The notes: a model not told the origin generated them from the sequence alone. 64,000 nucleotides of DNA from Candidatus Saccharimonadota bacterium (GCA_050486185.1 JBJHCT010000002.1:1623-65622); one strand, 5' to 3'. Positions 38,147 to 64,000 are shown, numbered from the stretch's first letter. Translations and numbers: made by a program.

Positions 38147-39220
38147 GTGCTAAAATTACTACAAGCTATGGCTAATTTTTTATCAAATAAAATCAAGGAC
38201 AGTTTCTTTGCCCTAGATATAGGCTCTACGGCTGTGCGAGCTGTACAGCTTAAGGGTGTAGATATACCCAAGAACATCATGTCCTATGCGTCAGTACCTA
38301 TAGATCCTAGGATTGCAGAAAGCGATTCTAAGCAAGACTTACAATCCCTAAAAAAGACTATTGAGAAACTAATCAAAGATGCCGGTATCAGCGAAAAAAA
38401 CGTAGTGGCTGGTATACCTACCAAGAAAATATTTGCTTCCGTAGTAGATTTTCCTAAACTATCAGGTGCAGAGCTTAAGAAAACAGTCGAGTATCAGCTA
38501 GAGAGCCATGTACCGACATCGATAGATGAGGTCAAAGTTGACTGGGTGCCTCTAGGCCCGTCTTTAGTTGATGAGGATAAACTAGAGGTATTGATCGTTA
38601 GTGTGAATAAAGACTTTGCAGAAGAGCGCATGAACCTAATCGATGATTTAGGACTTAATACTATTGCTTTTGAACCAGATGCTATCGCTTTAACTAGATC
38701 CCTAGTCAGTAGTGGCTACAGTGGCTCTAGCTTGTTGCTTGATTTAGGCTATCTAAACACTGATTTAGTTATCACGGTTGGTGATAAGCCAAGATTAATC
38801 AGATCGGTACCTGTAGGTGGTCAATCATTCGTTAAAACAGTAGCTCAGAATTTAAACCTAGATGCTAATCAAGCCCAGCAGTTTGTTTATAAGTTTGGGT
38901 TAAGCACTGATAAGGCGGAGGGGCAAATATATAAGGCACTAGAGAACGTTGTAGAGAATTTAATTAGCGAGATTAGTAAATCGATTAAGTTCTTCTCCGA
39001 TCGATACTCCGGAGCTAAGCTAGACCGCATAGTAGTTACTGGTGGGGCATCGGCATTACCAGGACTGCCTTTATATATAGCCAATAGAACCGGTATACAG
39101 GTAGAGATCGGCAATCCTTGGCAGAACATCTCCTATTCTCCCAGCCAATACAATGAGTTGATTAGATTATCTAGTCACTATGCTACGGCTTTAGGTTTAG
39201 GATTGAGGGCTGAAGAATGA
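38147..39220 (+). CDS. pilM: Type IV pilus assembly protein PilM (actin-like ATPase)
   Basis: FALDIGSTAVRAVQL phosphate-1 motif; VTGGASALPGL. Confidence 0.75.
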   Translation: MLKLLQAMANFLSNKIKDSFFALDIGSTAVRAVQLKGVDIPKNIMSYASVPIDPRIAESDSKQDLQSLKKTIEKLIKDAGISEKNVVAGIPTKKIFASVVDFPKLSGAELKKTVEYQLESHVPTSIDEVKVDWVPLGPSLVDEDKLEVLIVSVNKDFAEERMNLIDDLGLNTIAFEPDAIALTRSLVSSGYSGSSLLLDLGYLNTDLVITVGDKPRLIRSVPVGGQSFVKTVAQNLNLDANQAQQFVYKFGLSTDKAEGQIYKALENVVENLISEISKSIKFFSDRYSGAKLDRIVVTGGASALPGLPLYIANRTGIQVEIGNPWQNISYSPSQYNELIRLSSHYATALGLGLRAEE

Positions 39221-39918
39221 TAACCATTAACTTACTCCCAGATATCAAGAAAGACTATATTAACGCTAGGCGGCAGCGTAACAAGGTGGTCGGCTGGTCT
39301 ATTTTTGCAGGAGGCGGCGCGATAGTCTTAGTAATTATTTCCTTAATTATTATAGCCGCTCAATGGGTAGTAGTTAATAATACTCGAGAGAATGTTGAGG
39401 CCTTAAGCCAAGAACTAGCAGACAAAGAAGATGTTATTGAATTAATAACTGTCCAAAACCAGCTACAAGTATTACCAGAACTGCACTTGCAAAAACCTAA
39501 AATTGATCGACTTTTTGAGTATCTGCAGTCACTGACTCCAGAAGGTGTGCGTTTGAGCTCAGTCAGACTAGATATGGATCGCCAAATCCTAGAAATCACC
39601 GGTAATGCTAGAAGCATTAGAGATTTTAATGCGCTGGTCGATACCTACAAGGCTACTCTCTATCAGGCGCAATCAGTAGATTCTAACGGTGATTCAACTA
39701 GTTTTTCCAGCCCCTTGGCGGCTTTTGAGGATGTTAGATCGGTAATGAGTATCGATGCAGCTACTCAGAATGCTAACTTTAGAATCACTATGGAGTTTGA
39801 CCCTGCTATATTTGACGCTCGCTACCCATCAGTTAGAATCTCTGCTAATGGTGTAGTTGCTGATGAAGATGATTCTGGCGAGGTTATTTTCGATGATTCA
39901 ATCGAGGTTGAGGAGTAG
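39217..39918 (+). CDS. pilN: PilN-like bitopic protein
   Basis: Single N-terminal TM after a basic stretch. Gene order pilM-N-O with 4-nt overlap. Confidence 0.5.
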   Translation: MITINLLPDIKKDYINARRQRNKVVGWSIFAGGGAIVLVIISLIIIAAQWVVVNNTRENVEALSQELADKEDVIELITVQNQLQVLPELHLQKPKIDRLFEYLQSLTPEGVRLSSVRLDMDRQILEITGNARSIRDFNALVDTYKATLYQAQSVDSNGDSTSFSSPLAAFEDVRSVMSIDAATQNANFRITMEFDPAIFDARYPSVRISANGVVADEDDSGEVIFDDSIEVEE

Positions 39919-39920
39919 CC

Positions 39921-40559
39921 ATGAATTTATTTGATATAAACCTCACCAAAGATACCAAGATAGATAAAATCAAATCGACCATGATGGCATCGGTCATAAT
40001 ATCTGTGATAGTTATATCTTTCTCGTTGGTATTTTTGAAGTTCTTATTTGACCTTTGGAGCTACAGCGGCAGAGTCTACTCGGCCCAAAGAGAGGCTCGA
40101 ACAGTACTAGAATCTAATATCGAGGCCTACGAGCAGATGAAGCCTGAGTTTGACGTACTCAACTCAGCTAGCGGTACACCAGCTAGCCCAGACTCTAGCG
40201 TAGTTTTAGATGCTTTGCCTCATATATATGACTTTCCAGCTCTAGCTGCTTCGATGAAAAAACTAGCTGATTTAAGCGGAGTACAGCTAGTAGCTTTTAG
40301 TGGAGTGGATGAGGAGGGAGCTGTACCGGGTCCATCTCCTACACCCGTGCCATATGATGTTCACTTTCGCATAGAAGTCGGTGGATCATATGATGATATT
40401 CAAGCCTTTATCAACTCTTTAGATACTTCTATACGGCCATTTGAAATTACAGCTATTGAATTATTTGGTTCTGATAATACATTGAGAGCTGATATTAGAC
40501 TTAAAACCTATTATCAGCCGACCAAGAATCTTAATTATCCACAAAGGGTGGTGCAGTAA
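39921..40559 (+). CDS. pilO: PilO-like bitopic protein
   Basis: TM helix plus periplasmic domain; gene position. Confidence 0.45.
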   Translation: MNLFDINLTKDTKIDKIKSTMMASVIISVIVISFSLVFLKFLFDLWSYSGRVYSAQREARTVLESNIEAYEQMKPEFDVLNSASGTPASPDSSVVLDALPHIYDFPALAASMKKLADLSGVQLVAFSGVDEEGAVPGPSPTPVPYDVHFRIEVGGSYDDIQAFINSLDTSIRPFEITAIELFGSDNTLRADIRLKTYYQPTKNLNYPQRVVQ

Positions 40560-40813
40560 TGTTAGAGCAAAAAGATATCATCGCCATATCATTAATAGCT
40601 GTTATGAGTTTCATAGCTTCTTTCTTCATAGCTGCAGCTTTGATAACTACACCTGAGGATAGGGCCGAGTCGGTGATGGAGGTTAACGAACTCTCATCTA
40701 ATTTCTCACATCCCGATAGCGCTATATTTAATGAAGATGCCATTAACCCTACAGAAGAGATAACTATTGGAGGCGATTCTGCCACTAATCCATTTGATTC
40801 AGATAGGGATTAG
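40559..40813 (+). CDS. Small single-TM protein after pilO (84 aa), C-terminal NPFDSD
   Basis: Paralogous in position and C-terminal motif to the 55348..55656 ORF in the second cluster. Confidence 0.3.
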   Translation: MLEQKDIIAISLIAVMSFIASFFIAAALITTPEDRAESVMEVNELSSNFSHPDSAIFNEDAINPTEEITIGGDSATNPFDSDRD

Positions 40814-40819
40814 CTTGAT

Positions 40820-42031
40820 ATGTTGACCTTTAAATACACCGCTAGAGACCCTAAAACGCATGAGGAAATTAAAGCCACTGTTCAGGCTCAGTCTCAGGCC
40901 GATGCCGTTAAATTAATTACTGATCAAGGGTTAATGCCTACTAATATAGAGGTACAGACCTCTGGTAGTAATAGGTTTTCTTCTAGTAATAAAATTAGCT
41001 CCAAAGACAAGATTGTCTTTTTCCGCCAGCTATCAACACTAGTTGGTGCTGGATTGCCACTAACTCAGTCTTTAAGAACAGTTATAGAACAGCTAGATAG
41101 CAAAGCTTTAGTTACTATCTTGATGCAGGTTGTATCAGATGTTGAGGGCGGCACACCTCTAGCAGATGCTATGGGTAAACACCCCAAAGTCTTTAGCGAT
41201 GTAGTAGTTAGCCTTATAGCTGCGGGTGAAGCTTCGGGAATGCTAGATGAATCACTCAAGCGAATAGCCGATCAGACTGAAAAAGATGCCGAGATGGTCT
41301 CTAAGGTTAGAGGTGCTTTGGTGTATCCAGCTATAGTACTATTTGTTATAGCTGCAGTTATTATCTTTATGTTAACTACAGTTTTACCACAGATAGAGTT
41401 ACTGTACGCAGATTTAAATCAAGACTTACCTCTAACAACCGATATCATGCTCAAGATGTCCAATGTCATAACCAAGCTATGGTGGCTGGTTATAATAATC
41501 TTGGCTGGTGGTGTATTTCTAGTAAAGAAATATATCGATACTGAAAGCGGCCAAAGGCGTTTTGATGCATTTAAGATGAAAGTGCCGCTATTTGGTAAGT
41601 TATTTAAGAAACTATATATGGCTCGATTCGCTAGAACTGGAGCTATATTGATGCAGAGTGGAGTACAGATGTTAGAGATGTTGCGAATTACCGCTAGAGC
41701 CGTTAACAACGCGCTGGTCGCTGATGATATTATTAAAGCCGCCGGTAAAGTCAGAGGCGGTAAGCAGCTATCAGAGTCTCTGCAAGATAGTGAGCACTTC
41801 CTATCCCTAGTACCACAGATGATTAGTATCGGTGAGAAGTCCGGGTCTATAGACGGCATGATGTCTAAAGCAGCAGATTTTTATGAGAAAGAGTTGGATG
41901 ATGAAATCAAGACTATCTCTACTACTATCGAACCACTATTAATGGTTGTATTAGCGGTGATAGCAGCCATTATGGTCGGGGCTATACTGCTACCGGTTTA
42001 CGGTCTAGTGGGCGGCAACATATCTTTGTAG
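40820..42031 (+). CDS. pilC: Type IV pilus platform protein PilC (GspF family)
   Basis: Two GspF repeats, 3 TM helices, 403 aa. Confidence 0.85.
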   Translation: MLTFKYTARDPKTHEEIKATVQAQSQADAVKLITDQGLMPTNIEVQTSGSNRFSSSNKISSKDKIVFFRQLSTLVGAGLPLTQSLRTVIEQLDSKALVTILMQVVSDVEGGTPLADAMGKHPKVFSDVVVSLIAAGEASGMLDESLKRIADQTEKDAEMVSKVRGALVYPAIVLFVIAAVIIFMLTTVLPQIELLYADLNQDLPLTTDIMLKMSNVITKLWWLVIIILAGGVFLVKKYIDTESGQRRFDAFKMKVPLFGKLFKKLYMARFARTGAILMQSGVQMLEMLRITARAVNNALVADDIIKAAGKVRGGKQLSESLQDSEHFLSLVPQMISIGEKSGSIDGMMSKAADFYEKELDDEIKTISTTIEPLLMVVLAVIAAIMVGAILLPVYGLVGGNISL

Positions 42032-42150: not shown

Positions 42151-42660
42151 ATGATAAATATTGATTCAATAAACAAGAAACTAAGATCAAGGAAACTTGA
42201 TAGTCAAAAGCAAGAAGGCTTCACTATTATTGAAGTAGTTTTGGTGCTGGCTATTGCCGGTCTAATCTTTCTAATCGTATTCTTAGCTCTACCGCAGTTG
42301 CAGAGCACTCAAAGAGACTCTCAAAGAAGGTCTGACTTGGGTAGATTTATGTCCGCACTCGAGACTTATGCATCTAACAACAACGGTAGGTATCCTAACG
42401 ATTCTGACTTGCAGCAGATGAACGCTTTTGTGGACGGCTACTTAACTAATCAAGGTGCTACTTTTAATGATCCACTGGAAGACGACTACCAGTTCGGCAA
42501 CGATCCTACTAGCCTAAGCTCGGGTACTATCTATTATCGAACAGGGGCTTACTGTGGTGACTCGGAAGGGACTTTTGCTACCGACGGTGCAGGGTCTAGG
42601 AATATAGCTGCTATGGTGCCTTTAGAGAATGGTATAGCTTACTGTATAGACAATAGGTAG
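42151..42660 (+). CDS. Type IV pilin (prepilin-type leader)
   Basis: Leader ...KQEG|FTIIEVVLVLAIAGLIF with Glu+5. 169 aa with a C-terminal Cys pair. Confidence 0.7.
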   Translation: MINIDSINKKLRSRKLDSQKQEGFTIIEVVLVLAIAGLIFLIVFLALPQLQSTQRDSQRRSDLGRFMSALETYASNNNGRYPNDSDLQQMNAFVDGYLTNQGATFNDPLEDDYQFGNDPTSLSSGTIYYRTGAYCGDSEGTFATDGAGSRNIAAMVPLENGIAYCIDNR

Positions 42661-42720: not shown

Positions 42721-43524
42721 ATGAGCCTCAAGCAACGCAAACAAAAACTAGCCACAAATTCAGGGTTTACTATCCTAGAATTAATTTTATTTGTAGCTAT
42801 ATCTAGTTTGATGTTGACTATAGCCTTTACTAGTGTGGCTGGCAGGACTCAAGAAGCTCAATTTACTGATTCGGTAAGGACTCTGGAGTCACAACTTCGT
42901 CGCCACATTACCAATGTTAGTACTGGTCTAAATCTTCGCGGCGATGTTGATTGTGCTAAGTCCGGAGGGGTCTTGACCTTTCCAGCTGATAGTAACGCTG
43001 TAGAGGCTGGTCGCAATCAATCTTGTGTAGCTAATGGCCTATATATGTCTTTTGATTTAGATACGCCCGAGAATTATGTTGTGCAGTCGGTAGCCTCAAC
43101 TATAGAGTATGATGAGAGTCTTGGATCTTTAGAGAACCTAGTTGATAAACTTGTCTCTATGGACGTAGGGTTAGTACCAAATACTAGGTCGGAAAACGAT
43201 ATAAGTTGGGGTACAGAATACAGAGGTGGCTTTGTAGATTATGACGGTTCCGTAACTGAGGTAGCTGATATAGCTTTCTTAAAAATGAGATCAATAAATT
43301 CAAGCAGCCAGTACATGTTTGCTTACGCCAGAGAAGCTGGCGATACCGATGTGGCTGATTTAGAGGGGGAGATCGCTAGATTTAGAGATGAGAATATCGT
43401 TCCGATTCCATCCAATGTAGAGTATGGAATGTGTTTTGAGGGTGCAAATCGTGATTTTGTAGCAGTTGTAGTTGGTGGTGACGGTCAATTTAGTTTAGTA
43501 TTTCGTGATGAGAGGTGTAGTTAA
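42721..43524 (+). CDS. Pilin-like protein (prepilin-type N-terminus)
   Basis: ...TNSG|FTILELILFVAISSLML, Glu+5. Confidence 0.6.
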   Translation: MSLKQRKQKLATNSGFTILELILFVAISSLMLTIAFTSVAGRTQEAQFTDSVRTLESQLRRHITNVSTGLNLRGDVDCAKSGGVLTFPADSNAVEAGRNQSCVANGLYMSFDLDTPENYVVQSVASTIEYDESLGSLENLVDKLVSMDVGLVPNTRSENDISWGTEYRGGFVDYDGSVTEVADIAFLKMRSINSSSQYMFAYAREAGDTDVADLEGEIARFRDENIVPIPSNVEYGMCFEGANRDFVAVVVGGDGQFSLVFRDERCS

Positions 43525-45245
43525 TGTTCAACCTCTTTAAATCTACCTCTAACTCTCGCGGTGAAACCATCGTTGAGGTTCTTCTTGCTACAGTCATCCT
43601 CTCCACAGTTATCGCCGGAGCATATACTCTCTCTACTCGTGCCACTAGAATTGGTCAAGCCTCTATCGAACGTACGGAAGTTACTAATCAAGTCCAATCA
43701 AATGCCGAGGTCTTACGAGGCATTAGCTTCGAAAGAGGAGCTGCCTGGTCAAGAATAGTCACAGACGATGAAGAGACTAGTTTTGTGACTAACATCAAAC
43801 CTATCTATGATGAAACTACTTGTGAACCAACTCCTGGTTCTAGACCCTTCATCATCAACCAAGACAACATCGGCACGCCCGATGAAGACTCAGACAACGT
43901 CTTTGGTGCTAACGTCATAGAACCTTTCGAGACAGATGACGTATTAGACGAGAGTATCTATAGCTTCTGGATAGAAGCTTACCAAGAGACTGATAACTAT
44001 ATAGACTTCCACATTAGAGCCTGTTGGCAGAACCTAACCGGTTCTAGCTACAACCGTTCAGGAGCTGTACTGAGACTATATAGCGGCACCCAAGGTGGTT
44101 GGGGTAGATTCGTCTCTGGTCCTACTAGAAGATTACCCCTAGTAACCACTGATGCTATCTCTAATATCGAACCTGATTCTGCTAATACAGGCGGTAATGT
44201 AGCTGATGATGGTGGGGCTAGTGTAACTGCTCGTGGCATAGTCTACGCCACCTCTGCCTCACCGACCTTGAGTGATAACGAGATTAGACGAGGTGCCGGC
44301 ACCGGCTCCTTTAGCGTTAGCTTAACTAACCTCCAACCAGAAACCACCTACTATGTCAGAGCTTATGCTACTAACTCCTTTGGTACTTCCTATGGTAATG
44401 AGAGGGTCTTTGAGACCGATAGTGATGGTATAGAGGCTACTGGCGGATCCCAAACCACAGTTACTATTAGCGGAGAAACATACCGTGTGCATAGGTTCAC
44501 TGGTAACGGTAACTTTAGAATGCTATCAGATGAGGGTCGGGTAGAAGTACTAATAGTAGGCGGTGGTGGAGGAGGTGGTAACAATGGCGGCGGTGGCGGC
44601 GGGGCTGGCGGCGTAGTAGTTAGAACTTTAACTTTATCTAGCGGTACCTATACAGTTAGAGTCGGCAGTGGTGGTCGTGGAGCTTGTTGTTCAGGTTCTG
44701 TAACTAACTCTAATCGAGGCGCTAATGGTCAAAACTCTTCTTTTGATAGTATAGTTGCTCGTGGCGGCGGAGGCGGAGGCGGCAGGGGTACTAGCGGTAT
44801 AGGTGGTGCTAGTGGCGGCGGCGGAGGAGCTAGAGGTAATACTTCAGGTGGTTCTGGCATATCAGGGCAAGGTAATAGGGGTGGTAATGGGAGTAACCAT
44901 AGCTCTAGACCATCTGGTGGCGGTGGCGGATATGCCTCAGTCGGTATTCACGCAGCCTCAAGTAGAGGTGGTCATGGTGGCCACGGTTTTAACTCCAGTT
45001 CTTGGGGGATAGGTCGTAGCTGTGTGGCTGGCGGTGGCGGAGGCGCAATTTTGAGTGGATCTATTGGGGTAGGTCGTTGCGGCGGCGGTAATGGCGGTTT
45101 CGGTGGCAGTCCATATAACCAACCCCAATCACAGATATCGGCTACTGCTAATACTGGCGGAGGCGGTGGCGGCGGAAACAATCTAGCTGCTAGTGGCGGT
45201 GGGCACGGAGGCTCAGGAATAGTAGTTATTCGTTATCTTGATTAA
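43524..45245 (+). CDS. Large pilin-like protein with FN3-like module and poly-glycine C-terminal half
   Basis: ...NSRG|ETIVEVLLATVILS, Glu+5. An FN3-like ...TYYVRAYATNSFGTSYGNERVF segment. About 230 aa of G5-7 blocks. Confidence 0.6.
   Translation: MFNLFKSTSNSRGETIVEVLLATVILSTVIAGAYTLSTRATRIGQASIERTEVTNQVQSNAEVLRGISFERGAAWSRIVTDDEETSFVTNIKPIYDETTCEPTPGSRPFIINQDNIGTPDEDSDNVFGANVIEPFETDDVLDESIYSFWIEAYQETDNYIDFHIRACWQNLTGSSYNRSGAVLRLYSGTQGGWGRFVSGPTRRLPLVTTDAISNIEPDSANTGGNVADDGGASVTARGIVYATSASPTLSDNEIRRGAGTGSFSVSLTNLQPETTYYVRAYATNSFGTSYGNERVFETDSDGIEATGGSQTTVTISGETYRVHRFTGNGNFRMLSDEGRVEVLIVGGGGGGGNNGGGGGGAGGVVVRTLTLSSGTYTVRVGSGGRGACCSGSVTNSNRGANGQNSSFDSIVARGGGGGGGRGTSGIGGASGGGGGARGNTSGGSGISGQGNRGGNGSNHSSRPSGGGGGYASVGIHAASSRGGHGGHGFNSSSWGIGRSCVAGGGGGAILSGSIGVGRCGGGNGGFGGSPYNQPQSQISATANTGGGGGGGNNLAASGGGHGGSGIVVIRYLD
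44560..45240 (+). repeat. Low-complexity GGN-codon tract encoding poly-Gly blocks
   Basis: Repeated ggcggtggcggaggc-type runs; the antisense frames give the spurious Pro-rich ORFs in the track. Confidence 0.6.
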
Positions 45246-45263: not shown

Positions 45264-46421
45264 ATGGTAGAGTTTTTAACATTTTTTATTATCCTAACAG
45301 CAGGACTGCTTTTCTCAGAGTTCTTTAATAGACTGCACTTGCCTTGGGTAACAGCTCTAATAATATCGGGTATTGTTTTTGGTAGTGAAGGCTTTGATAT
45401 TATCCAGAGCAATCAGGTGACTGACTTTTTCTCAGAAACAGGGCTAGTATTTTTAATGTTTATGGCCGGTCTTGAGATTAGCTTTGCTAGTTTCCGTAAC
45501 GTCAAACATGAAGTTACAGTTGTCAGTGCTATCAACGGCATCATACCACTGTTAGTTGCCTTAGCTATTGCTGTGATGTTTAATATGAGCTTTGATGCCG
45601 GTTTCTTACTAGGTGCCGCCCTTGTCTCCTCATCTATTGCCGTGGTACTGCCTTCATTAGAGGGGCGAGCCGTTTCTAGACGCAAAATTGGTCATACTAT
45701 TATCGGCTCAACCGTAGTGCTAGATATTGTCAGTGTGACTTTCTTCTCGATACTAATTCAACGGGCTACCGGTACTGACCTACCTTTGCTTGTACTTTAT
45801 ACCTTCCTAGCTCTAGCACTAGTAACTTTGAGGCTATCTGTTTCTAAAATTGAGGAATACCTAACTAAATTTGATAGTAAAAAATTCGAGCAAGAGCTAC
45901 AGCTGATTATCAGCATATTATTAGGTACAGTCATACTTTTCGGATTACTTGGTTTGCAGCCTGCTGAGGCAGGATTCTTTGCTGGGTTGGTTTTGAGCGG
46001 ATCGGTCAATGATCGTTTGACCAAGGCTAAACTCAGAGCTATCGCTTACGGGATGTTCATACCTGTTTTCTTTGTCATGGTTGGTGCTGAATTGCAGATC
46101 AGTGGTCTACTTAGCTCACCTAGCGCCTACCTATTAATTATAGTGGTACTACTAGGCTCAATCCTGTCCAAGTTCGGTAGCGGTTTTCTAGCCGGTCGCA
46201 TGACTAACTTCTCTAAACGCGAAAGCTTGCTTTTGGGCGCTGCTACCACTCCTCAACTTAACGTTACGCTAGCGATTGCTGCTACTGGATTCTCCTACGG
46301 ACTCATCAATCATGATCTATTAACTGCGCTAATTGTATTGAGTATCGGTACTACCATGATAGCGCCGATATTAATCAACAAATTAGCCTCTGGCCTGGAA
46401 GAAGAAGATAGCCAAAGCTGA
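45264..46421 (+). CDS. Cation:proton antiporter (CPA2/Kef-type membrane domain, no RCK)
   Basis: 385 aa, about 11 TM helices, Na+/H+ exchanger-like. Confidence 0.6.
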   Translation: MVEFLTFFIILTAGLLFSEFFNRLHLPWVTALIISGIVFGSEGFDIIQSNQVTDFFSETGLVFLMFMAGLEISFASFRNVKHEVTVVSAINGIIPLLVALAIAVMFNMSFDAGFLLGAALVSSSIAVVLPSLEGRAVSRRKIGHTIIGSTVVLDIVSVTFFSILIQRATGTDLPLLVLYTFLALALVTLRLSVSKIEEYLTKFDSKKFEQELQLIISILLGTVILFGLLGLQPAEAGFFAGLVLSGSVNDRLTKAKLRAIAYGMFIPVFFVMVGAELQISGLLSSPSAYLLIIVVLLGSILSKFGSGFLAGRMTNFSKRESLLLGAATTPQLNVTLAIAATGFSYGLINHDLLTALIVLSIGTTMIAPILINKLASGLEEEDSQS

Positions 46422-46463
46422 TATAATCTTTGTAAGAGAAGTAAATTAAAGGTAAATTTTTAA

Positions 46464-47114
46464 GTGAGGAGGGTAAATCTAATGGGTAAAGGTTTCTGGG
46501 CAGTACTAGGTTTAATAGTAGTAGTAATGGTAGGTGTAGTTATAGCTTTTGGCGATAGGGACTCTGCTCCAAGAGAGGTGATAGAGAACCCTCATGAGAT
46601 TACCGAAGAAGATAATGCGGTAGGCCCAAGTGATGCACCGATAACTTTAGTAAAATATAGCGATTTTCAGTGTCCAGCTTGTGAAGTCGGCTATCGGGCC
46701 TTAAAGGATATCAAGGTTGAATTTGCAGATGATTTACAATTTGTTTACCGTCACTCACCGTTTCTCACGCAAGCCTATGATGCGGCTAGAGCCTCAGAAG
46801 CTGCTGCAAGGCAAGATATGTTTTGGCAGATGCACGATATGCTATTTGAAAGACAATCGCAGTGGAGCGGTAACGCCAATATCCGCAGCTTATTTGAATC
46901 TTACGCTGAAGAGCTAGATATGGATGTCGACCAATATAGGGAAGATTTTGAGAATGCTGGCTCTAGGGTTGAGCGAGATGTAGCTATTCGTGATCAGATT
47001 GATGTTATCGGCACTCCTACCTACTTCATAAATGGTGAGAGGTTGCCGGAGAATCCTCAGACTAGTGAGAGATTTGCAGAGATTATATCTGAATACTTAG
47101 CAGATATAGAGTAG
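46464..47114 (+). CDS. DsbA-like thiol:disulfide oxidoreductase (thioredoxin fold, membrane-anchored)
   Basis: N-terminal TM helix and a CPAC active site (FQCPACEV). Confidence 0.65.
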   Translation: MRRVNLMGKGFWAVLGLIVVVMVGVVIAFGDRDSAPREVIENPHEITEEDNAVGPSDAPITLVKYSDFQCPACEVGYRALKDIKVEFADDLQFVYRHSPFLTQAYDAARASEAAARQDMFWQMHDMLFERQSQWSGNANIRSLFESYAEELDMDVDQYREDFENAGSRVERDVAIRDQIDVIGTPTYFINGERLPENPQTSERFAEIISEYLADIE

Positions 47115-47137
47115 AAGTTAGCTCTATACCTTTATTC

Positions 47138-48814: not shown

Positions 48815-48921
48815 AAAAAAGTTTTAACTCAATCTAAATAGCCCAGGAAGTTTAGATGTGATTTGTTACTATCTATTTTTAACGCCTGAGCTTAAAAAAT
48901 CGATAAAACTCTGCTCCTTTA

Positions 48922-53246: not shown

Positions 53247-53258
53247 GGGTATTTTAGC

Positions 53259-53729: not shown

Positions 53730-53750
53730 CCTACCTGTATAATACTAACT

Positions 53751-55347: not shown

Positions 55348-55656
55348 TTAAGGGCTAAAAGGATCCTGAGTACCTAAGTCTCCCAAAGACTCATCGACAT
55401 TAACCTCTACTAGATTGTCTATTTTATCTCTTAATTCCTCATCTACATTAATACCGATTTGCTGGCTTTCAAATAGTTGCTCCAAGCGTCGGTTTTCATC
55501 GATAACTGGGTTGCTAATTGGTCTAATCTTGATCAACGTATAGCCAAACAGTACCAGAATAAGCAACCAAATAGCTATTAAGCGGTAGCGAGATATAAAT
55601 CTAATACCTTTCTTGGCTGTTAGTAGTAGTTGGTCTTTATCAGGTAATAACTTCAT
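55348..55656 (-). CDS. Small single-TM protein after pilO (102 aa), C-terminal QDPFSP
   Basis: Position and tail motif parallel the 40559..40813 ORF. Confidence 0.3.
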   Translation of the reverse strand: MKLLPDKDQLLLTAKKGIRFISRYRLIAIWLLILVLFGYTLIKIRPISNPVIDENRRLEQLFESQQIGINVDEELRDKIDNLVEVNVDESLGDLGTQDPFSP

Positions 55657-56210
55657 GGCTTCAAAAATACCTCTAAATTAATACTAAACTGCAGTCCACT
55701 GCCAGATCTTGATATGTTTAGGTTACTTATCTGCATATGCCTCTTATTATTTTCAAGAGCCTCTAAAAGCTGAATAAATTCTTGGTATGAGCTTACGATC
55801 TGGAATCTAACCGGCATTATTCTCACATTAGGTATGCTAGAAGTTAGGGTTTGACTAATTTCACCGGGTCTGCCGCTCGTTGATTCAAAACTCAAACCTC
55901 TTAATTCAAGCCCGACACTACTGACTATAGCCTGTAGCTGTAGGGCTACTTTGGCCTGTTCTTTTTCTTCTGGTAGTATCTTGTACACACTGTCTCGTAG
56001 ATCAGCCAACTCAGCGTATTCTTGCTCGAGTTGCTCTAAGCTAGTCAACCTTTCGTTGATTACCGATATATCAGTCATTAGTACTGATAGATTATCGGCT
56101 TTACCAGCTAAAGCCCTATGACTCATCCAGAAGCCAACCAGTCCAACCATAATTACTAAGCTCACAATAGTCACGAGAGTGATGAAGAGTTGTTTGGGGG
56201 TGATATTCAT
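55653..56210 (-). CDS. pilO: PilO-like bitopic protein
   Basis: TM helix plus coiled-coil; gene order. Confidence 0.45.
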   Translation of the reverse strand: MNITPKQLFITLVTIVSLVIMVGLVGFWMSHRALAGKADNLSVLMTDISVINERLTSLEQLEQEYAELADLRDSVYKILPEEKEQAKVALQLQAIVSSVGLELRGLSFESTSGRPGEISQTLTSSIPNVRIMPVRFQIVSSYQEFIQLLEALENNKRHMQISNLNISRSGSGLQFSINLEVFLKP

Positions 56211-56746
56211 CTGGCTGCTCCCTCACTAAATTTCATAACTACCTCTACGTTATATCCATTTGAACCGGCAGAAATGGATTGAGTGTCAACAGATTCAATA
56301 CGGGCGCTACTGCTTAGAGCTTCTTGAAGCAGGCTGGCTTGATTGAACGATCTAGTGGTAACAGTAATCCTGACAGGCTGATCATCCTGGCCAGTTAGTA
56401 CGATGCTGTTTATGTAGGCATCAGGCGGCAAGGTATCGGCTAGATCCTCTAACAAGGCGCTAAACCTGGTCTGCTGAGACATCAGCTGATCAATGGTATT
56501 AAGCCGATTATTCAACGAGGAGACATTAGTTTCTAAATCCTGGTAGCTATTTAGTTGCTGCTGTGATCTGGCTAATGACTGAGAATACTCCTCGATCTGC
56601 CTATCGGCAAAAACGTGAGCAGTGTATAGGGTTGCTGCTAGAAGCAGTGATAGGCCGACAATTAATATTAGTAGCCGCAACAAAAGAATGTTATGTTTGG
56701 AAAACTTAACCTGATCTTTTAACTCTGGAGGCAGCAAGTTAATCAT
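56207..56746 (-). CDS. pilN: PilN-like bitopic protein
   Basis: MINLLPPELK start then TM helix, typical PilN N-terminus. Confidence 0.55.
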   Translation of the reverse strand: MINLLPPELKDQVKFSKHNILLLRLLILIVGLSLLLAATLYTAHVFADRQIEEYSQSLARSQQQLNSYQDLETNVSSLNNRLNTIDQLMSQQTRFSALLEDLADTLPPDAYINSIVLTGQDDQPVRITVTTRSFNQASLLQEALSSSARIESVDTQSISAGSNGYNVEVVMKFSEGAAR

Positions 56747-57803
56747 CGCTAACCTCCTTAAGAGCTAAGCCAACAGCGGTAGTGTATAAAGATACCTCGT
56801 TTTTATGGGGTGGCTGTAAAGGGGAGACTTTGATATTAGCCAAAGGGTTACAGGTGCTAACCGGTATACCGGTTAAATGGGCTATAAAGTCACTCATGCC
56901 CGGTAAGGATGATCCACCACCTACGACAACTATCTCTTCAATATGCTGATCGAATTTAGAGTGCTCATGGTGGTATCTAAGCATTTTCTGAACTTCATTA
57001 GCTAAAGAGTTTAGCATAGGCGATAGTACTGAAGTTAGCTGAGACTGCCACTTACTTTCTGTAATGCCGTAACGATTCTTGATTTTCTGGGCTTGATGCT
57101 TATCGATTCCTAGCGCTTGAGCAATAGCATTGGTTATATCTAAACCACCAGTGTCTACAGAACCGATTAGCTGTAAACCTTGATCGTAAATAGCTAGGTC
57201 GCTAGACTCGGCCCCGAAGTCAATAATTACTTTGGGTTTTTGATTACCCACACTATGGTTAACAGCTCTAACAATAGCTGATAGGTTAGGCTCAATAATC
57301 TCTACCTCGAGACCTAAAACGCCAAAAAGATTAATATATGAATCAACCACTTTTTTAGGAGTAGCTACTATCAAAACTAGCATTTCATCACTCTTTTCAT
57401 CAGCATCTTTGGTGATAGTGTAATCTAAATATATTTGATCAGGTGGCAAGGGTACATACTGTTCAGCCTGCATGCGTATAGCGGTCTCTAAGTCATCACC
57501 GCTAAGCCTAGGCAGAGTGATAGCTCTGGCGAATATCTGTGAAGTAGGGATAGATATAGCTACTCGATTGGTAGTAACTTCGCCGATAATCGATTGACCT
57601 AGTAGTTCTTTAATCGACTGGGCAATTACTTGAGGTTGTTTAATCTCTCCACCCTCAATAGCTTTTGGATCAAAGCTATTGTAGCCATAACCAACTGCCT
57701 CTACTTGATTTTTGGTCTTTGATATCTGGGCTACTTTAATAGTCTGTAGTCCAATATCTACTCCAAATATGGGTTTTTGTTTATAAAACAGTGCTTTACT
57801 CAT
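56739..57803 (-). CDS. pilM: Type IV pilus assembly protein PilM
   Basis: IFGVDIGLQTIKVAQI, VVGGGSSLPG. Confidence 0.75.
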   Translation of the reverse strand: MSKALFYKQKPIFGVDIGLQTIKVAQISKTKNQVEAVGYGYNSFDPKAIEGGEIKQPQVIAQSIKELLGQSIIGEVTTNRVAISIPTSQIFARAITLPRLSGDDLETAIRMQAEQYVPLPPDQIYLDYTITKDADEKSDEMLVLIVATPKKVVDSYINLFGVLGLEVEIIEPNLSAIVRAVNHSVGNQKPKVIIDFGAESSDLAIYDQGLQLIGSVDTGGLDITNAIAQALGIDKHQAQKIKNRYGITESKWQSQLTSVLSPMLNSLANEVQKMLRYHHEHSKFDQHIEEIVVVGGGSSLPGMSDFIAHLTGIPVSTCNPLANIKVSPLQPPHKNEVSLYTTAVGLALKEVSDD

Positions 57804-57871: not shown

Positions 57872-59281
57872 TTATTCAAATATCTGTTGATAGTTTTTAA
57901 TAGACCAAACACTTTGACCGGATGATAGTTCCTGTCCAAAAGTAATGTTACCGGTGTTGCCTAAATGAATGGTCTGACCCAAGATTGCTCCGACTGAACC
58001 ACTGTTACTTAACTCAACTTTACTCCAACGAGCATAGAATTTACTACCGGCCGCTAGAGAGGAGTTGTCTAAAGTTATGGTAGTAATTGATTGTGAATTA
58101 TATAAATCAACGCCGCTAACTTCACTACAATCTGGTGAACAGCTAGCAGTGGAGTGAAAAGTGATGAATTCTACACCTAAACCATCAGAGTTAGTTAGTA
58201 TTTTCGAGGAGTTACGCATCTCGATGCCATCTGAGCCATCAACCATAATAACTGGCAAGTTTTCACTAATAGTATCTGATATCTCAATAGTTCCAGAGTT
58301 TCTCATACTCAAACTTCCATCCATCCAAACATCGCCCTCTACTACAACGGTACAGCTACGCCTAATACTCACATCACCACCAGTAATATGGGTGTTAGCT
58401 GGCCAAGTTTTGACTTGATTGTTGTTGGTGCAGCTAGCTTCAATATTAGTCATGGTATTAGTCGCAGCATCTTGATGAGCTTGACGATCGTACTCTGGTA
58501 GATCAACGGGATCACTGCTACTACCTTCGATTAATCCCGGACTATACATACCGCTACCATTAGTTTGGTTAGTGGCACGTACCTCACCATATATACTGGC
58601 TTGATTACTTATACTGATGGGTTCACCACTAGTGCACTGTGAAGGAAAGCTGCTATCTGGGGGTTCAGGGCAGAACATATGGGCTACATAAACATTACCA
58701 GGATTATCTTCACTACCGATACGAGCGCTATTGCTCATATTGATATAGCCATTAACATAGACATCGCCATTAGCAATGGTAGCGCTATTGGACATAATCA
58801 GACCTCCTGGGCCGGTCTGTATAGAGTAATCATCAGTAGTCGTACCGACCACTACTAAACGAATGCTACGGCTAATTAAAGGATCACTAGCCGTACTCGG
58901 CATATAGACTCGACCAGTAGCAGTAATTATCTTTTCGTTACTTAAACCACCTTCGGCGATAGTAGTTTGATAGGTAACCCTACCTTGTGTTTGATTTTGT
59001 GCGAACACTTCCTCACTTTGATATCCAGCAAAATCACTGTCATTATTTAATTCGTGTAAAGTTTTCTCAGCCCCGGCTTCAGCTGCCAGCATGGCGTTGG
59101 CTCGAGCTATACCTCGATCGGCAATATTCATCTGAGCTAAGACCAGGCTAGATAAAGACAAGCCAACAGTTAGAATTATTAGCATTATTACTAAAAGAGT
59201 AGGCAGTATCATACCTTGAGAATTATCGACTTTATTCATTTCTAAATACTCCCCTAATACTAAAGTCTGCCTGCAAATCAC
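57872..59281 (-). CDS. Large pseudopilin-like protein (PilX/GspK-like N-terminus without Glu+5), beta-rich C-terminal domain
   Basis: ...NSQG|MILPTLLVIMLIILTVGLSL hydrophobic N-terminus. 469 aa. Overlaps the upstream pilin gene. Confidence 0.4.
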   Translation of the reverse strand: MICRQTLVLGEYLEMNKVDNSQGMILPTLLVIMLIILTVGLSLSSLVLAQMNIADRGIARANAMLAAEAGAEKTLHELNNDSDFAGYQSEEVFAQNQTQGRVTYQTTIAEGGLSNEKIITATGRVYMPSTASDPLISRSIRLVVVGTTTDDYSIQTGPGGLIMSNSATIANGDVYVNGYINMSNSARIGSEDNPGNVYVAHMFCPEPPDSSFPSQCTSGEPISISNQASIYGEVRATNQTNGSGMYSPGLIEGSSSDPVDLPEYDRQAHQDAATNTMTNIEASCTNNNQVKTWPANTHITGGDVSIRRSCTVVVEGDVWMDGSLSMRNSGTIEISDTISENLPVIMVDGSDGIEMRNSSKILTNSDGLGVEFITFHSTASCSPDCSEVSGVDLYNSQSITTITLDNSSLAAGSKFYARWSKVELSNSGSVGAILGQTIHLGNTGNITFGQELSSGQSVWSIKNYQQIFE

Positions 59282-59921
59282 GAGAGTAGACTCGATCAGA
59301 AATCGATAAATCTACTCTAACCGATCGAGCATTTTCATCTTCTGGCGAAACTTCTTCATCTTCAAAACTGAAGTAGGTGATGGTGAAATTACTGACATTA
59401 GAAGCTAGTAGGGTATCTGATGGACACCCAGTGGTTCCGCTTGGACAGGTAGTACCAGCAGCGTTACCCTCAACATCAGCTGCTAATATGCGCTTATATA
59501 AATTACCGTTATCTAGGAAATAAACTAAATTATTCTTGTGGGTGATATAGGCAAAAGGATCTTCATATATGAAGTTATTGTTACTATCTACAACAGGGGA
59601 GGCTAAAATCAAAACTTCGCCATTTGACACCCAGCTATAATCATCAGCAGGTGAGTCAGGCGCATGAGAGTCTGGCCAACGATTAATCTCATCTACTCGA
59701 GCGCTATGTTTAATGTCTTGATTAATAACTTCCAGGCTAATCTGAGCGTCCATTAGTAGTTTCGATCTAGCTGAAGCTATGGCATTGGCTACAATCTTAT
59801 CACTAAAGAAACTCAAGATAATGGCAATCAAGATACCGGTCACAGCTGTAACTACAATCAGCTCTATCAGAGTAATGCCTCGGCTTCGGTGTTTAAGTTT
59901 GAATAATGATTTTTGACTCAT
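59232..59921 (-). CDS. Minor pilin-like protein (prepilin-type)
   Basis: ...HRSRG|ITLIELIVVTAVTGILIA, Glu+5. Confidence 0.6.
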   Translation of the reverse strand: MSQKSLFKLKHRSRGITLIELIVVTAVTGILIAIILSFFSDKIVANAIASARSKLLMDAQISLEVINQDIKHSARVDEINRWPDSHAPDSPADDYSWVSNGEVLILASPVVDSNNNFIYEDPFAYITHKNNLVYFLDNGNLYKRILAADVEGNAAGTTCPSGTTGCPSDTLLASNVSNFTITYFSFEDEEVSPEDENARSVRVDLSISDRVYSRDLQADFSIRGVFRNE

Positions 59922-60373
59922 TGCGATATCCCGATAGAACCGATAATGCCGGTTAATATAATAGTTTTACCATCAGGACTTTGGGCGTAGGTAATGTTAA
60001 CTTCTAACTCTTTGAGGCCTGGTGTATCTTCACTGACATGAACTTGAGCAGATCTTGGTTCTGGCAGTTCTTGAGGTAGCTCATCGGTAAAATCGATAAT
60101 AGTATCAGGCTCTAGTGAGTTGTAGTGGTTATTTCTAAGAGACTCGATCTTAGCCTCGCCAGCTTTAGTAGCTAATTCGATATTATGAGTGCGTCTCTGT
60201 ATGGTGTCTATAGATATAAATAGCTGGAATACCCCTACTACTATTAGGCTGAATATAGACATAGCAATCAATAACTCTATGAGGGTAAATCCAAGATTAG
60301 AAGGTGTTTGTGGCAATGCTTTCAATACAAAGTCCTTAAGGTTTAATATAACTAATTCTAGCACTAATACCAC
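59918..60373 (-). CDS. Minor pilin-like protein (prepilin-type)
   Basis: ...SNLG|FTLIELLIAMSIFSLIV. The annotated N-terminus is probably too long. Confidence 0.55.
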   Translation of the reverse strand: MVLVLELVILNLKDFVLKALPQTPSNLGFTLIELLIAMSIFSLIVVGVFQLFISIDTIQRRTHNIELATKAGEAKIESLRNNHYNSLEPDTIIDFTDELPQELPEPRSAQVHVSEDTPGLKELEVNITYAQSPDGKTIILTGIIGSIGISQ

Positions 60374-60470
60374 CTAGACTACATTGGGATCAATAAATAA
60401 ACCGGCTGCAAATTAGTGCAACCGGTTTAAGTCGTGCGACCACTTTTAGTTGAGGCAGCTCTTCTTTAAG

Positions 60471-61037: not shown

Positions 61038-62252
61038 CTAAAAACCTTGAGTCATCTCTGTTAATGGTCCAAAGATACTAGCTATGATTAAGGCTACTAT
61101 TCCTCCCAAAGCCACTATTAAGGCAGGTTCAATTACGGAGTTGATACCGGTTATAGCTCTATCTACTTCTTGTTCATAAAATACAGCAATTCTTTCTAGC
61201 ACTGTATCTATCTGTCCGGTCTCTTCACCGACCGCCGCCATCTGAGTCACAATACCTGGGAAGATGCCTGAACTAGCTAGAGAAATTGAAATCGGTTGAC
61301 CGTTTTTAATCTTATCTATACTAGATGATAGACCTTCTTGTATGACCATATTGGATAAAGCACCGCTAGTAATCTCTAAGGCGTTGACCACAGATATACC
61401 GGCACCAGTTAGCGAGCTAAATATGCGTGAGAATCTAGCTACATTTACTTTTAAGATAATAGTGCCAAAAGCTGGTATTTTCAGTAGCAAGCTATCTAGC
61501 ATATATTTGCCTTTTGGCGTACGCACAAACCTACTAGTTGCTACAACAGCTAATATGGTGACAACTATTAGTATTAGACCGTTATTGACTAGAAAGTTAC
61601 TAAAAGATATTAGTAATTGGGTTTGAGCGGGTAGCTCTGTGCCGAAATCATCAAATATGGCGGTAAATTTAGGAATAATATTGGTCATCAAAAAGATAAC
61701 TGCACCTATAGCCACAGTCAAAACTACGCTTGGATATATCAAGGCTCCTCGGAGCTTGCTTTTGATTTCTGCATCTTTCTCTACCTGAGATGCTAATCTA
61801 TCCATTATCTGATCCAAGATACCACCTTCTTCACCGGCCTTGATCATATTGACATAAACACTAGAGAAGGTCTTAGGGTATTTACTCATGGCCTCAGACA
61901 GCTGAGTACCGGCCTCTACTTCAGATACGATATCTTCCAAAATCTTCTTTAGTCCTAGTGACTCAGTCTGATTTGACATAGTGGAGAGCGATCTAACCAA
62001 AGGCACCCCAGCACCGACCATAGTAGCCATTTGCCGGGTGAATACTACGATATCCATAGTTTTTACTTTGTTAGAGCTGCCAATATTTATATTTAAGTTC
62101 TTGATTGATCTGCCACCAGCCTTATCGATTTTAAGTGGACTCAAGCCCTTGTATTGCAAGGCAGATATAGCGGCCTCTTTAGAGTCAGCCTCTATGCAGC
62201 CCTTTTGCATCTCGCCTTTATCGCTCATCGCGGTATATTGAAATTCAGCCAC
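61038..62252 (-). CDS. pilC: Type IV pilus platform protein PilC (GspF family), GTG start
   Basis: Two GspF repeats; 404 aa. Confidence 0.85.
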   Translation of the reverse strand: MAEFQYTAMSDKGEMQKGCIEADSKEAAISALQYKGLSPLKIDKAGGRSIKNLNINIGSSNKVKTMDIVVFTRQMATMVGAGVPLVRSLSTMSNQTESLGLKKILEDIVSEVEAGTQLSEAMSKYPKTFSSVYVNMIKAGEEGGILDQIMDRLASQVEKDAEIKSKLRGALIYPSVVLTVAIGAVIFLMTNIIPKFTAIFDDFGTELPAQTQLLISFSNFLVNNGLILIVVTILAVVATSRFVRTPKGKYMLDSLLLKIPAFGTIILKVNVARFSRIFSSLTGAGISVVNALEITSGALSNMVIQEGLSSSIDKIKNGQPISISLASSGIFPGIVTQMAAVGEETGQIDTVLERIAVFYEQEVDRAITGINSVIEPALIVALGGIVALIIASIFGPLTEMTQGF

Positions 62253-62262
62253 TTTAAAACCC

Positions 62263-64000
62263 CTACTCTCTGGTTACTCTTAATACTTCTTCGATAGCAG
62301 TAACGCCGTTTAAAGCTTTCATGAATCCGTCTAGCTGCATAGTCATCATGCCGTTTTCTATAGCTTGATGCTGGATATCATCACTAGTGGCGTTACCGAC
62401 AATTAACTTAGAGATAGTCTCATCGATCTCCAGTACCTCATAGATACCCATTCTGCCACTGTAGCCCTCCCCGTCGCACTCGTCACAACCCTCGCCCGGT
62501 TTAAAGAGGGCGAGGTTGTTAAGGTCGACCTCGCTAGGCGCTAAGTTTTTTGTTGAGTCTTGGCTTTTCTTGCCTTCTTTTTTATCTTCATCCTTAGACT
62601 TATTCTTTTTCTTAGAGTTTCTCTCTAGGTCTAGCTTGAGGCTTTCATTGATTAGGGGTAGATACCTTTCTAGATAAAACTCTTGATTTAGTTTTGCTAG
62701 CTCTTTTTCATCAGGGCTGTAGTTTTGTCTGCAGTTGGTGCATAGTTTGCGCACCAATCGCTGCCCAACCACCACTCTAACCGTTGAAGCAATCAAGAAA
62801 GGCTCAGCTCCCATATCTAGAAGTCTAGGTAAAGTCGTAGCTGCATTGTTGGTGTGAAGGGTTGATAACACTAAGTGGCCGGTTAAGGCTGCTTGGATAG
62901 CTAGATCAGAGGTCTCACCGTCACGAACCTCACCGACCATAATGATATTGGGGTCTTGTCTAAGTAGAGCCCTTAATCCAGAAGCAAAGGTCATGCCGGC
63001 CTTAGGGTTGACTTGAGTTTGGTTAACTCCTTGGATACGGTACTCTACGGGATCTTCGACGGTCGATATATTTACTTTAGGTGAATTGAGACTAGTTAGA
63101 ATGCTATAAAGGGTAGTTGATTTACCTGAACCGGTAGGTCCGGTGACCAAAATCATACCGTGTGGTTGGTGCATAGCCCTATCCATTTTCTCTAGTGGGC
63201 TACTGCCAAAACCCAGCTCTTCTAAAGTTAGAGCTCTTGAGGATTCATTGAGCAGTCTCATGACTACTTTTTCACCGTCCATAGTCGGTAGGGTAGAGAC
63301 ACGTAGAGCCACAGTACCTGAAGCGGTCTGGATCTTGAATCTACCATCTTGGGGTTTGCGGTGTTCATCAATCTTTAAGTTAGCCATAATTTTGATTCTC
63401 GATACTAGAGCTAACATTAAGTTCCTGGGTAGGGTATTGGCTTCTTTGAGTACGCCGTCGACTCGGTAGCGAATCTGGACTAACTGCTCTCTAGGCTCGA
63501 TATGAACATCAGAGGCTCCTTCCTTGATGGCGTATTCGATTAATAGGTTAACTGTTTTAGCTATAGGGGAGTCTTCGGCTACTTCATCGGCACTAACTTC
63601 TTCTGCTATTATCTCATCTTCACCCTCGGGAATAACTTTGGTAATCTCACTATCTAAGTTGCCTTTATATTGCTCAAGAACCTTATTTATATCGCTATCG
63701 GTAGCTATATAGAAATGGACATCTTTACCTAGTAGTTTTTCCAGGGCGTCGATAGCGGGTAGATCACCTGGATCGGATATAGCTACTTTGCGGCCACCTT
63801 TGTCGGTAGCTTCAAATAGCACTGCTCTATACTGTCTGGCGATATGCTCGGGTATGAGGTTGAGTACTGGCGGTTCAATATTGACATTAGCTAAAGAGAC
63901 GAACTCAGCTCCGATATTATCAGCGTAGAGTTTGGTTAGATCTTTATCACTAAAAACTTTCTTATCGATCAGTACATCCTGAAGAGGCTTCTTTTGCTTC
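62263..64000 (-). CDS. pilB: Type IV pilus assembly ATPase PilB/GspE; the N-terminus extends beyond the window end
   Basis: Walker A VTGPTGSGKST, Asp box, Walker B, His box, tetracysteine motif. The frame stays open upstream of Met-63822 (…KQKKPLQDVLIDKK…VLNLIPEHIARQYRAV, a GspE N-terminal domain) to nt 64000. Confidence 0.88.
   Translation of the reverse strand, partial: KQKKPLQDVLIDKKVFSDKDLTKLYADNIGAEFVSLANVNIEPPVLNLIPEHIARQYRAVLFEATDKGGRKVAISDPGDLPAIDALEKLLGKDVHFYIATDSDINKVLEQYKGNLDSEITKVIPEGEDEIIAEEVSADEVAEDSPIAKTVNLLIEYAIKEGASDVHIEPREQLVQIRYRVDGVLKEANTLPRNLMLALVSRIKIMANLKIDEHRKPQDGRFKIQTASGTVALRVSTLPTMDGEKVVMRLLNESSRALTLEELGFGSSPLEKMDRAMHQPHGMILVTGPTGSGKSTTLYSILTSLNSPKVNISTVEDPVEYRIQGVNQTQVNPKAGMTFASGLRALLRQDPNIIMVGEVRDGETSDLAIQAALTGHLVLSTLHTNNAATTLPRLLDMGAEPFLIASTVRVVVGQRLVRKLCTNCRQNYSPDEKELAKLNQEFYLERYLPLINESLKLDLERNSKKKNKSKDEDKKEGKKSQDSTKNLAPSEVDLNNLALFKPGEGCDECDGEGYSGRMGIYEVLEIDETISKLIVGNATSDDIQHQAIENGMMTMQLDGFMKALNGVTAIEEVLRVTRE

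Follow-up and report, generated by a model that had tools for sequence, protein, structure and literature searches.

Two convergent type IV pilus gene clusters in a Saccharimonadales genome and their probable counterparts in Nanosynbacter lyticus TM7x

Gene content of the two pilus clusters

The 64,000-nucleotide stretch of DNA analyzed in this study (GCA_050486185.1, JBJHCT010000002.1:1623-65622), hereafter the window, carries two gene clusters for type IV pili (T4P), designated cluster A (plus strand) and cluster B (minus strand), which converge on a block of about 10 kb. Judging from its protein sequences, the window belongs to a genome of the Saccharimonadales (Saccharibacteria, Patescibacteria), and the relatives of its lineage originate from saline or soda lakes. 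The window genes were obtained from an open reading frame (ORF) listing combined with Pfam and NCBIfam scans, and these scans confirmed all 18 pilus genes named in a preliminary description of this DNA, together with their coordinates and their convergent orientation around the 10-kb block (Table 1). With a probability that we put at about 0.8, cluster A is a T4P-1-type locus and cluster B a T4P-2-type operon in the sense established for Nanosynbacter lyticus TM7x, and the motor genes belonging to cluster A lie elsewhere in the genome.

Relatives were sought with PilC of cluster A over 185,579 species-representative genomes, among which only two metagenome-assembled genomes (MAGs) gave close matches: Ca. 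Saccharimonadales bacterium LejiaB_40_21 (L002; PilC 89% identical) and Ca. Saccharibacteria bacterium CSSed165cm_563 (L003; 71% identical). A metagenomic relative, L093, encodes a PilC that is 57% identical. The scans of genome and metagenome contigs with the same protein returned mostly unrelated phyla at 28-38% identity, and the informative matches were limited to L002, L003 and L091-L093. Further comparisons used a sister MAG (GCA_040879705.1, which includes contig L082), a more distant relative (L171) whose PilX-like protein is 57% identical to that of cluster B, and three Logan contigs of run SRR31311414, which represent the same sample as the window and are 100% identical to it.

Table 1. 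Features of the pilus clusters, the intervening block and the ComEC region. In signal motifs a slash follows the conserved Gly. TM, transmembrane.
Feature	Position	Strand	Evidence or remark
pilM, cluster A	38147-39220	+	PF11104 2.4e-43; TIGR01175 161.6 bits (cutoff 133)
pilN-like, cluster A	39217-39918	+	PF05137 3.8e-5, 24.1 bits (cutoff 22.8); N-terminal TM segment
pilO-like, cluster A	39921-40559	+	position, TM segment, synteny with L002, L003 and L093
84-aa single-TM protein, cluster A	40559-40813	+	slot of the unnamed TM7x gene between pilO1 and pilB1
pilC, cluster A	40820-42031	+	T2SSF 1e-54, two stretches; GspF and PilC NCBIfam models 1e-86 to 2e-107
A6, candidate major pilin (pilA1 position)	42151-42660	+	G/FTIIE; N_methyl 2.5e-5; PDB pilin N-terminal matches
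A7, minor pilin (pilV1 position)	42721-43524	+	G/FTILE read from sequence; N_methyl weak, 0.02
A8, modular pilin (pilZ1 position), 573 aa	43524-45245	+	G/ETIVE; N_methyl 4e-4; PF21722 3.5e-19
Block between clusters, ten housekeeping and transport genes	45264-55342	mixed	Pfam annotations carried with the Logan contigs
Block, gene order			cation:proton antiporter (C1), DsbA-like, K+/H+ antiporter with TrkA_N (C3; -), amino-acid permease
Block, continued			172-aa TM protein (-), AspRS, YebC, RuvC, RuvA, RuvB
102-aa single-TM protein, end of cluster B	55348-55656	-	97-aa gene at the equal position in L171
pilO, cluster B	55653-56210	-	PF04350 2.9e-7
pilN, cluster B	56207-56746	-	PF05137 9.5e-9
pilM, cluster B	56739-57803	-	PF11104 3.6e-47; TIGR01175 178 bits
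PilX-like minor pilin	57872-59281	-	PilX_N only 0.13; without Glu5
Minor pilin	59232-59921	-	G/ITLIE; N_methyl 2.1e-6
Minor pilin	59918-60373	-	G/FTLIE; N_methyl 1.5e-7
Intrinsic terminator or attenuator hairpin	60398-60429	-	directly after the major pilin gene
pilA, major pilin (pilA2-like), 144 aa	60471-60905	-	G/FTLIE; N_methyl 1e-9; PDB pilin matches to 1.5e-12
pilC, cluster B	61038-62252	-	T2SSF 1.1e-56, two domains; PilC and GspF NCBIfam models 1e-108 to 5e-118
pilB, cluster B	62263 to beyond 64000	-	T2SSE (PF00437) 7.8e-134, MshEN; TIGR02538 type IV-A PilB 4.8e-172
Protein with two Lamin Tail Domains, 584 aa	1907-3661	-	PF00932 2e-18
ComEC	3654-5120	-	TIGR00360 1.6e-15
GmrSD_C/DUF1524-type nuclease-like	5113-5880	-	PF07510 3.8e-17

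Both clusters encode a PilC/GspF platform protein and PilMNO; both PilM proteins score over the TIGR01175 cutoff, and both PilN proteins over the Pfam cutoff. The PilB-type ATPase (T2SSE and MshEN) occurs in the window in cluster B only. The pilB gene attributed to cluster B is indeed present, but it is cut by the end of the window: its frame is open to base 64000, and the full protein of 607 aa, contained in a Logan contig, extends beyond the edge, with recA lying divergently upstream of the gene. The class III signal G/xTxxE was found in A6, A7 and A8 and in the major and two minor pilins of cluster B. As had been proposed earlier, neither PilT nor PilD nor a secretin is encoded in the window: tblastn with the proteins of a relative, which also covered a second PilB, matched the cluster B PilB only, and neither a PilQ secretin nor a PilP domain was found in the scanned ORFs or the precomputed Pfam annotations. 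The absence of a secretin is expected for the monoderm-like Saccharibacteria. Searches of PDB sequences with both major pilins returned generic pilin N-termini only, with no Saccharibacterial pilin structure among them.

The eight ORFs of cluster A are all intact and are 71-91% conserved with relatives. The start of pilM is likely the ATG at 38168, which gives 350 aa, the form held in the protein collection, and this PilM is 90.6% identical to that of L002. The pilN-like gene occupies the position of pilN1 in L093 and in TM7x, A6 comes after pilC as pilA1 does in both, and A7 has orthologs in L002, L003, L086 and L093. The 84-aa protein has no Pfam match; its C-terminal motif AINPT..ITIG..NPF is kept in L002, L003, L086 and L093. 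The 102-aa protein of cluster B likewise has no Pfam match. A small single-TM protein closes the pilMNO block in both clusters, with an acidic tail ending in NPF or DPF, and the cluster A-type motif is retained down to the relative with the 57%-identical PilC (L093, 1965-2291). The cluster A-type protein may be an uncharacterized component of the alignment complex.

In cluster B, the PilX-like gene likely starts at 59239, giving a protein of 455 aa that is a candidate tip protein or adhesin. PilX/GspK-type proteins lack Glu5. Clustered at 50%, the family of this protein has 349 representatives, of which 109 match at E<=1e-30 and the majority are full-length; six of 46 members match PilX_N (best 6e-5), and some match DUF7305. 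A profile of the family found no match among PDB sequences, and an AlphaFold2 (AF2) model from the single sequence, with a predicted local distance difference test (pLDDT) score of 45, was unusable. The hairpin behind the major pilin gene has a 13-bp stem that includes 6 GC pairs, with a U-rich tail behind it; its predicted fold has -28.9 kcal/mol (z = -3.6), and none of 200 shuffled sequences was equally stable. Promoter scans gave matches no more frequent than in shuffled sequence. The cluster B PilB also has a Lys-rich insertion between two CxxC motifs (…ERNSKKKNKSKDEDKKEGKKSQ…), and this inter-CxxC region, as read from the sequences, is about 25 residues longer than in PilB1 of L002.

Probable correspondence with T4P-1 and T4P-2

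The two clusters are only distantly similar. PilM of cluster A is 30.6% identical to that of cluster B and PilC 36.0%, both far below the more than 80% at which the preliminary description would have read a recent copy, while the major pilins are 32% identical over 116 aa and the PilN and PilO pairs gave no match by BLASTP. Moreover, PilC of cluster A is 34-38% identical to PilC of other phyla (Gemmatimonadota, Armatimonadota) and thus as close to these as to its paralog in the same genome. No DNA repeat of at least 30 nt common to the clusters was found. A recent duplication or an assembly duplicate is ruled out by the identities of 31-36% together with the lack of such a repeat, and the protein sequences show, as had been supposed, that clusters A and B are old paralogous T4P systems.

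According to Grossman et al. (2025, ISME J, PMC12206443), TM7x and every clade G1 genome of the Saccharibacteria possess two type IVa pilus (T4aP) systems, which agrees with the statement in the preliminary description that two T4P systems with distinct roles have been reported for Saccharibacteria. Locus one of T4P-1 in TM7x has the order pilM1-N1-O1-[unnamed]-pilB1-pilT-pilC1-pilA1-pilD-pilV1-Z1-W1-X1 (Table S3, PMC12206443); the system, inferred to form a thicker, retractile pilus that drives twitching, is essential (PMC12206443). T4P-2 comprises pilB2-pilC2-pilM2-N2-O2, encoded close to recAX, and pilins from another locus, and forms a 1.8-nm pilus that is non-essential and speeds host binding; T4P-2 mutants have wild-type competence, and twitching does not need T4P-2 (PMC12206443). 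Two T4P loci have also been marked in S. epibionticum (Wang et al. 2023, PMC10633639), where the T4P-1 genes are essential as they are in TM7x (PMC10633639, PMC12206443), and Saccharibacteria are naturally competent (PMC10633639).

The order in L093, PilM-N-O-smallTM-PilB-PilT-PilC-PilA-PilD-A7like-A8Nlike-pilin-PilX-Xer, is the order of TM7x locus one and includes orthologs of all eight cluster A genes (A1-A8); L091 and L092 agree with it. Cluster A of the window retains the subset M-N-O-x-C-A-V-Z, and its PilN and PilO have similar sizes (233 and 212 aa here, 245 and 222 aa in TM7x). It differs from TM7x T4P-1 in that pilW1- and pilX1-like genes are not present in the window cluster, that the pilin in the pilZ1 position has fn3-like and Gly-rich domains, and that pilB-pilT-pilD, together with an extra pilM, have been relocated behind the minor pilins in L002 and L082 and do not occur in the window. 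This second PilM paralog (346 aa) lies just upstream of pilB1 (L002, 10928-11968; L082, 2101-3141) and is 34% identical to PilM of cluster A and 25% to that of cluster B; TM7x locus one lists a single pilM.

Cluster B resembles TM7x T4P-2 in having pilB-pilC and pilMNO, no pilT, recA nearby, several minor pilins, a PilA of 144 aa (141 aa in TM7x PilA2) and a large PilX-type protein without a canonical PilD site. Its pilins, however, lie inside the operon between pilC and pilM rather than at a separate locus, and it has three minor pilins instead of four. Synteny, gene content and elimination together suggest that cluster B is orthologous to T4P-2 of TM7x. The whole architecture of cluster B recurs in L171, where the operon likewise converges on the RuvB-RuvA-RuvC-YebC and AspRS part of the block. 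The arrangement of two pilus systems is already known in the group and is extended here to environmental Saccharimonadales.

A comparison can also be drawn with the wide and narrow pili of Thermus thermophilus (PDB 6xxd, 6xxe and 8qqj are among the matches), which likewise involve two major pilins with a presumed division of labour. In Thermus, one machinery serves both filaments, whereas two full PilM/N/O/C sets are present here and two PilB in relatives.

The missing motor genes and the A8 join

The preliminary description stated that cluster A has no ATPase. The window indeed contains no PilB besides that of cluster B, but comparison with relatives shows this to be a property of the contig path. 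L002 shares its gene order with the window over the two genes preceding pilM and on to A7, and then continues with a 211-aa pilin, a 388-aa PilX-like protein, the second PilM, PilB (594 aa), PilT, PilD and a Xer-type recombinase; contig L082 of the sister MAG carries a block identical in order. Wherever the sequence of a relative covers the locus or the region behind it, pilB-pilT-pilD are present; PilD occurs in the T4P-1 locus of L002, L082, L091 and L093, and each relative examined carries PilT beside PilB1. The window instead continues from A7 into A8 and from there to the antiporter C1.

The surroundings of C1 have their own counterpart in the relatives. Three assemblies of the L002 genome run from GDH through a 2-hydroxyacid dehydrogenase (2-Hacid_dh) and a 192-aa pilin to C1, and this pilin is 72% identical to residues 1-189 of A8 and ends there. 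In the sister MAG, GDH and 2-Hacid_dh precede an A8-type gene, A8b (protein P0129), which is joined to the C1 contig through an exact 55-nt overlap. A second copy is indicated in this MAG: the contig with cluster A breaks off after the first 53 nt of an A8-like gene, which begins with exactly the 5' sequence of A8b, and the contig with PilB1 opens on the final codons of another glycine-rich protein, ahead of the 211-aa-type pilin. These two contexts of A8-type genes in the relatives imply that the window joins the sequence preceding one copy to the gene body of the other copy and to what lies behind that body. Furthermore, one Logan contig stops at 43586 and the following one begins only at 44375, leaving 788 nt of A8 unbridged. 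The continuity from A7 through A8 to C1 lacks independent support across 43587-44374, and both the absence of an ATPase and the layout around the 10-kb block depend on it.

The cluster without motor genes is thus explained by a contig path that leaves the T4P-1 locus within or at A8; its "ATPase-less" appearance follows from the break in the locus and is not a property of the system. A PilB1 ortholog, P0003, is 91.2% identical to PilB1 of both L002 and the sister MAG, and PilC and PilM of the window are 89-92% identical to those of the same two genomes, which differ less from each other (94.5-95%). The distance of P0003 matches that of the window. Whether the join in A8 is chimeric or real, the motor genes are expected elsewhere in the genome, and we infer that the missing pilW1- and pilX1-like pilins, second pilM, pilB1, pilT and pilD are located there. 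Like the window proteins, P0003 derives from unannotated NCBI sequence, in its case a contig of 9,614 nt.

Several observations weigh against this assignment of the two clusters and the relocation of the motor genes. The assignment to T4P-1 and T4P-2 is based on gene order, content and sizes and not on a tree; PilO of cluster A matches PF04350 at 0.0097, which is under the Pfam cutoff; Pfam scans found no RCC1 or beta-propeller signal in the cluster B PilX-like protein or its family, unlike TM7x PilX2; and recA is located upstream of pilB and divergent from it, whereas recAX in TM7x lies downstream of pilO2. In addition, a direct tie of P0003 to the window genome is not established, sliding comparison of A8 with A8b gave a uniform nucleotide identity of about 70% with no internal breakpoint, and the deposited contig of 113,807 nt is continuous through A7 and A8 to C1.

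The nature of the A8 join is a question within the T4P-1/T4P-2 assignment and leaves the identities of the clusters intact. The balance between a chimeric assembly and a real recombination is close to even, with a slight lean towards the latter. A chimera, formed through a repeat shared by two A8 paralogs, would mean that A7-A8a-pilin-PilX-PilM'-PilB1-PilT-PilD and 2-Hacid_dh-A8b-C1 occupy separate sites and that the convergent layout is an artefact. This is a serious candidate, though it falls a little short of an even chance: both contexts occur in the sister MAG, where the A8 5' ends are identical and contigs share exact overlaps of 55 nt, as is typical where a graph branches, the passage from 2-Hacid_dh through the A8-type N-terminal pilin to C1 occurs in the three L002 assemblies, and the two Logan ends are 788 nt apart inside A8, whereas Logan contigs elsewhere run 8-14 kb. 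It is opposed by the continuous A8 ORF and its uniform identity to A8b. Moreover, the lineages differ by about 25% in nucleotides and diverge in gene order elsewhere too (behind C3 and in the location of ComEC, for example), which makes a real rearrangement plausible. In particular, the synteny between L087, a contig of the L002 genome (14203-15455), and the window (49176-50537) stops after C3, indicating that the L002-type and window genomes have been rearranged at more than one point. Breaks in Logan contigs also arise without repeats, which bears on the break in A8, because two of them abut, with a 4-nt overlap, within yebC (52903-52906), a single-copy gene. Behind C3, L087 has a 416-aa gene on the minus strand where the window has the amino-acid permease.

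That cluster A truly lacks an ATPase, being served by the PilB of cluster B or decaying after the loss of pilB1, pilT and pilD, is improbable. The cluster B PilB is the only T2SSE ATPase in the 64-kb window, and the deposited 113.8-kb contig runs through the join, as this reading would require. Against it stand the intact and conserved ORFs of cluster A, the presence of pilB-pilT-pilD in the locus of every informative relative, the PilB1 ortholog with the divergence expected of the lineage and the essentiality of the T4P-1 genes in TM7x and S. epibionticum; the identities of 31-36% between the PilM and PilC proteins of the two systems would make cross-use of the motor less likely as well. The weakest reading, a Com-type competence pseudopilus for DNA uptake with cluster B beside recA as the obvious candidate, is very unlikely, since the adjoining recA, the ComEC gene of the window and the natural competence of Saccharibacteria are outweighed by the model scores (ComGA 266 bits against a cutoff of 300, compared with 573 for PilB; ComGB 119-147 bits against a cutoff of 240, compared with 320-395 for PilC/GspF), by the PilMNO genes of both clusters, which are not known from Com systems, and by the wild-type competence of TM7x T4P-2 mutants.

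A modular pilin, predicted functions and neighbouring genes

Cluster A was described as ending in three prepilin genes, and class III signal peptides are present in all three, but the third, A8, is a modular protein of 573 aa. It consists of a pilin module (aa 1-190) with the invariant motif RGETIVEVLLA, an fn3-like module (about aa 205-300) and a Gly_rich_2 domain (PF21722, aa 335-571). An AF2 model was confident for the N-terminal module only (residues 1-189, pLDDT 70-89), which is predicted to form a lollipop, and a Foldseek search of the PDB gave nothing at E<=1e-3. A literature search on PF21722 found no paper. The full-length search with A8 was dominated by proteins with fn3-like repeats from Bacteroidota and other groups; the only true ortholog was P0129, the A8b protein of the sister MAG, which is 80% identical over residues 1-500 and has the same architecture. 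Stand-alone homologs of the pilin module elsewhere have 170-200 aa, and the occurrence of the extension only in the window and the sister MAG suggests a recent graft.

The fn3-like module (44136-44423) is 45-57% identical to repeats of proteins of 600-1000 aa from Bacteroidota, where they are large surface proteins, and other bacteria (families PF16974, PF25059 and TIGR02145), and it also matches the N-terminal part of an arabinanase model. These matches hint that the module may have been acquired horizontally. PilB of Streptococcus sanguinis is reportedly a modular pilin with a vWA module. A8 would resemble it in joining a pilin module with a class III signal to grafted domains that are likely displayed on the pilus, and it differs in that the grafts are fn3-like and Gly_rich_2 domains and that the +1 residue is Glu. 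By analogy, the extension is a candidate displayed adhesin or host-recognition module.

The presence, at two distant loci, of two A8-type genes with a shared 5' module and different Gly-rich C-terminal domains raises the speculative and rather improbable idea that these genes are a recombination substrate that swaps the adhesin domain displayed on the T4P-1 pilus, with the segment carrying pilB1-pilT-pilD being inverted or relocated. If so, a mechanism of pilin variation would exist in Patescibacteria, and the window would represent one isomer and the sister MAG the other.

From the standard biology of T4aP, PilD encoded elsewhere in the genome would cleave the prepilins after the conserved Gly, a PilB hexamer would turn PilC and extrude pilins from the membrane, and PilMNO, probably with the small TM proteins, would couple the cytoplasmic and extracytoplasmic parts and align the machinery; in a monoderm-like envelope no secretin would be needed. 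By analogy with TM7x, PilT would depolymerize T4P-1 only, so that retraction of T4P-1 could drive twitching, and T4P-2 would likely be non-retractile and tether the cell to its host. The roles suggested in the preliminary description were DNA uptake versus motility or attachment. The second part accords with TM7x, in which T4P-2 acts in host binding and T4P-1 presumably drives twitching, and the work on TM7x assigns DNA uptake to neither system.

These findings extend the two-pilus arrangement of the oral clade G1 to environmental Saccharimonadales, with the T4P-2 pilins placed within the machinery operon and the T4P-1 motor genes relocated, and they favour the idea that a division of labour between two pili is an ancient trait, stably kept in the epibiotic lifestyle. 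They also illustrate that pilus clusters of MAGs that seem to be without an ATPase need comparison with relatives; in this case, the genes go missing just where a minor pilin gene is duplicated and extended by further domains, and this gene breaks assemblies.

Directly upstream of pilM in cluster A lie two overlapping plus-strand genes (34831-38099), one for a TM protein of 352 aa and one for a secreted Ser/Gly-rich protein of 738 aa. Their synteny extends to L002, L003 and L086, with 56% and 73% identity to L002, respectively, and neither has a Pfam match except a weak one to CARDB. They could form a surface or adhesin module co-transcribed with T4P-1. At the other end of the window, three minus-strand genes (1907-5880) are likely a DNA-uptake operon that includes ComEC (Table 1); in L171, ComEC is located between yebC and aspS and adjoins the cluster-B-type operon.

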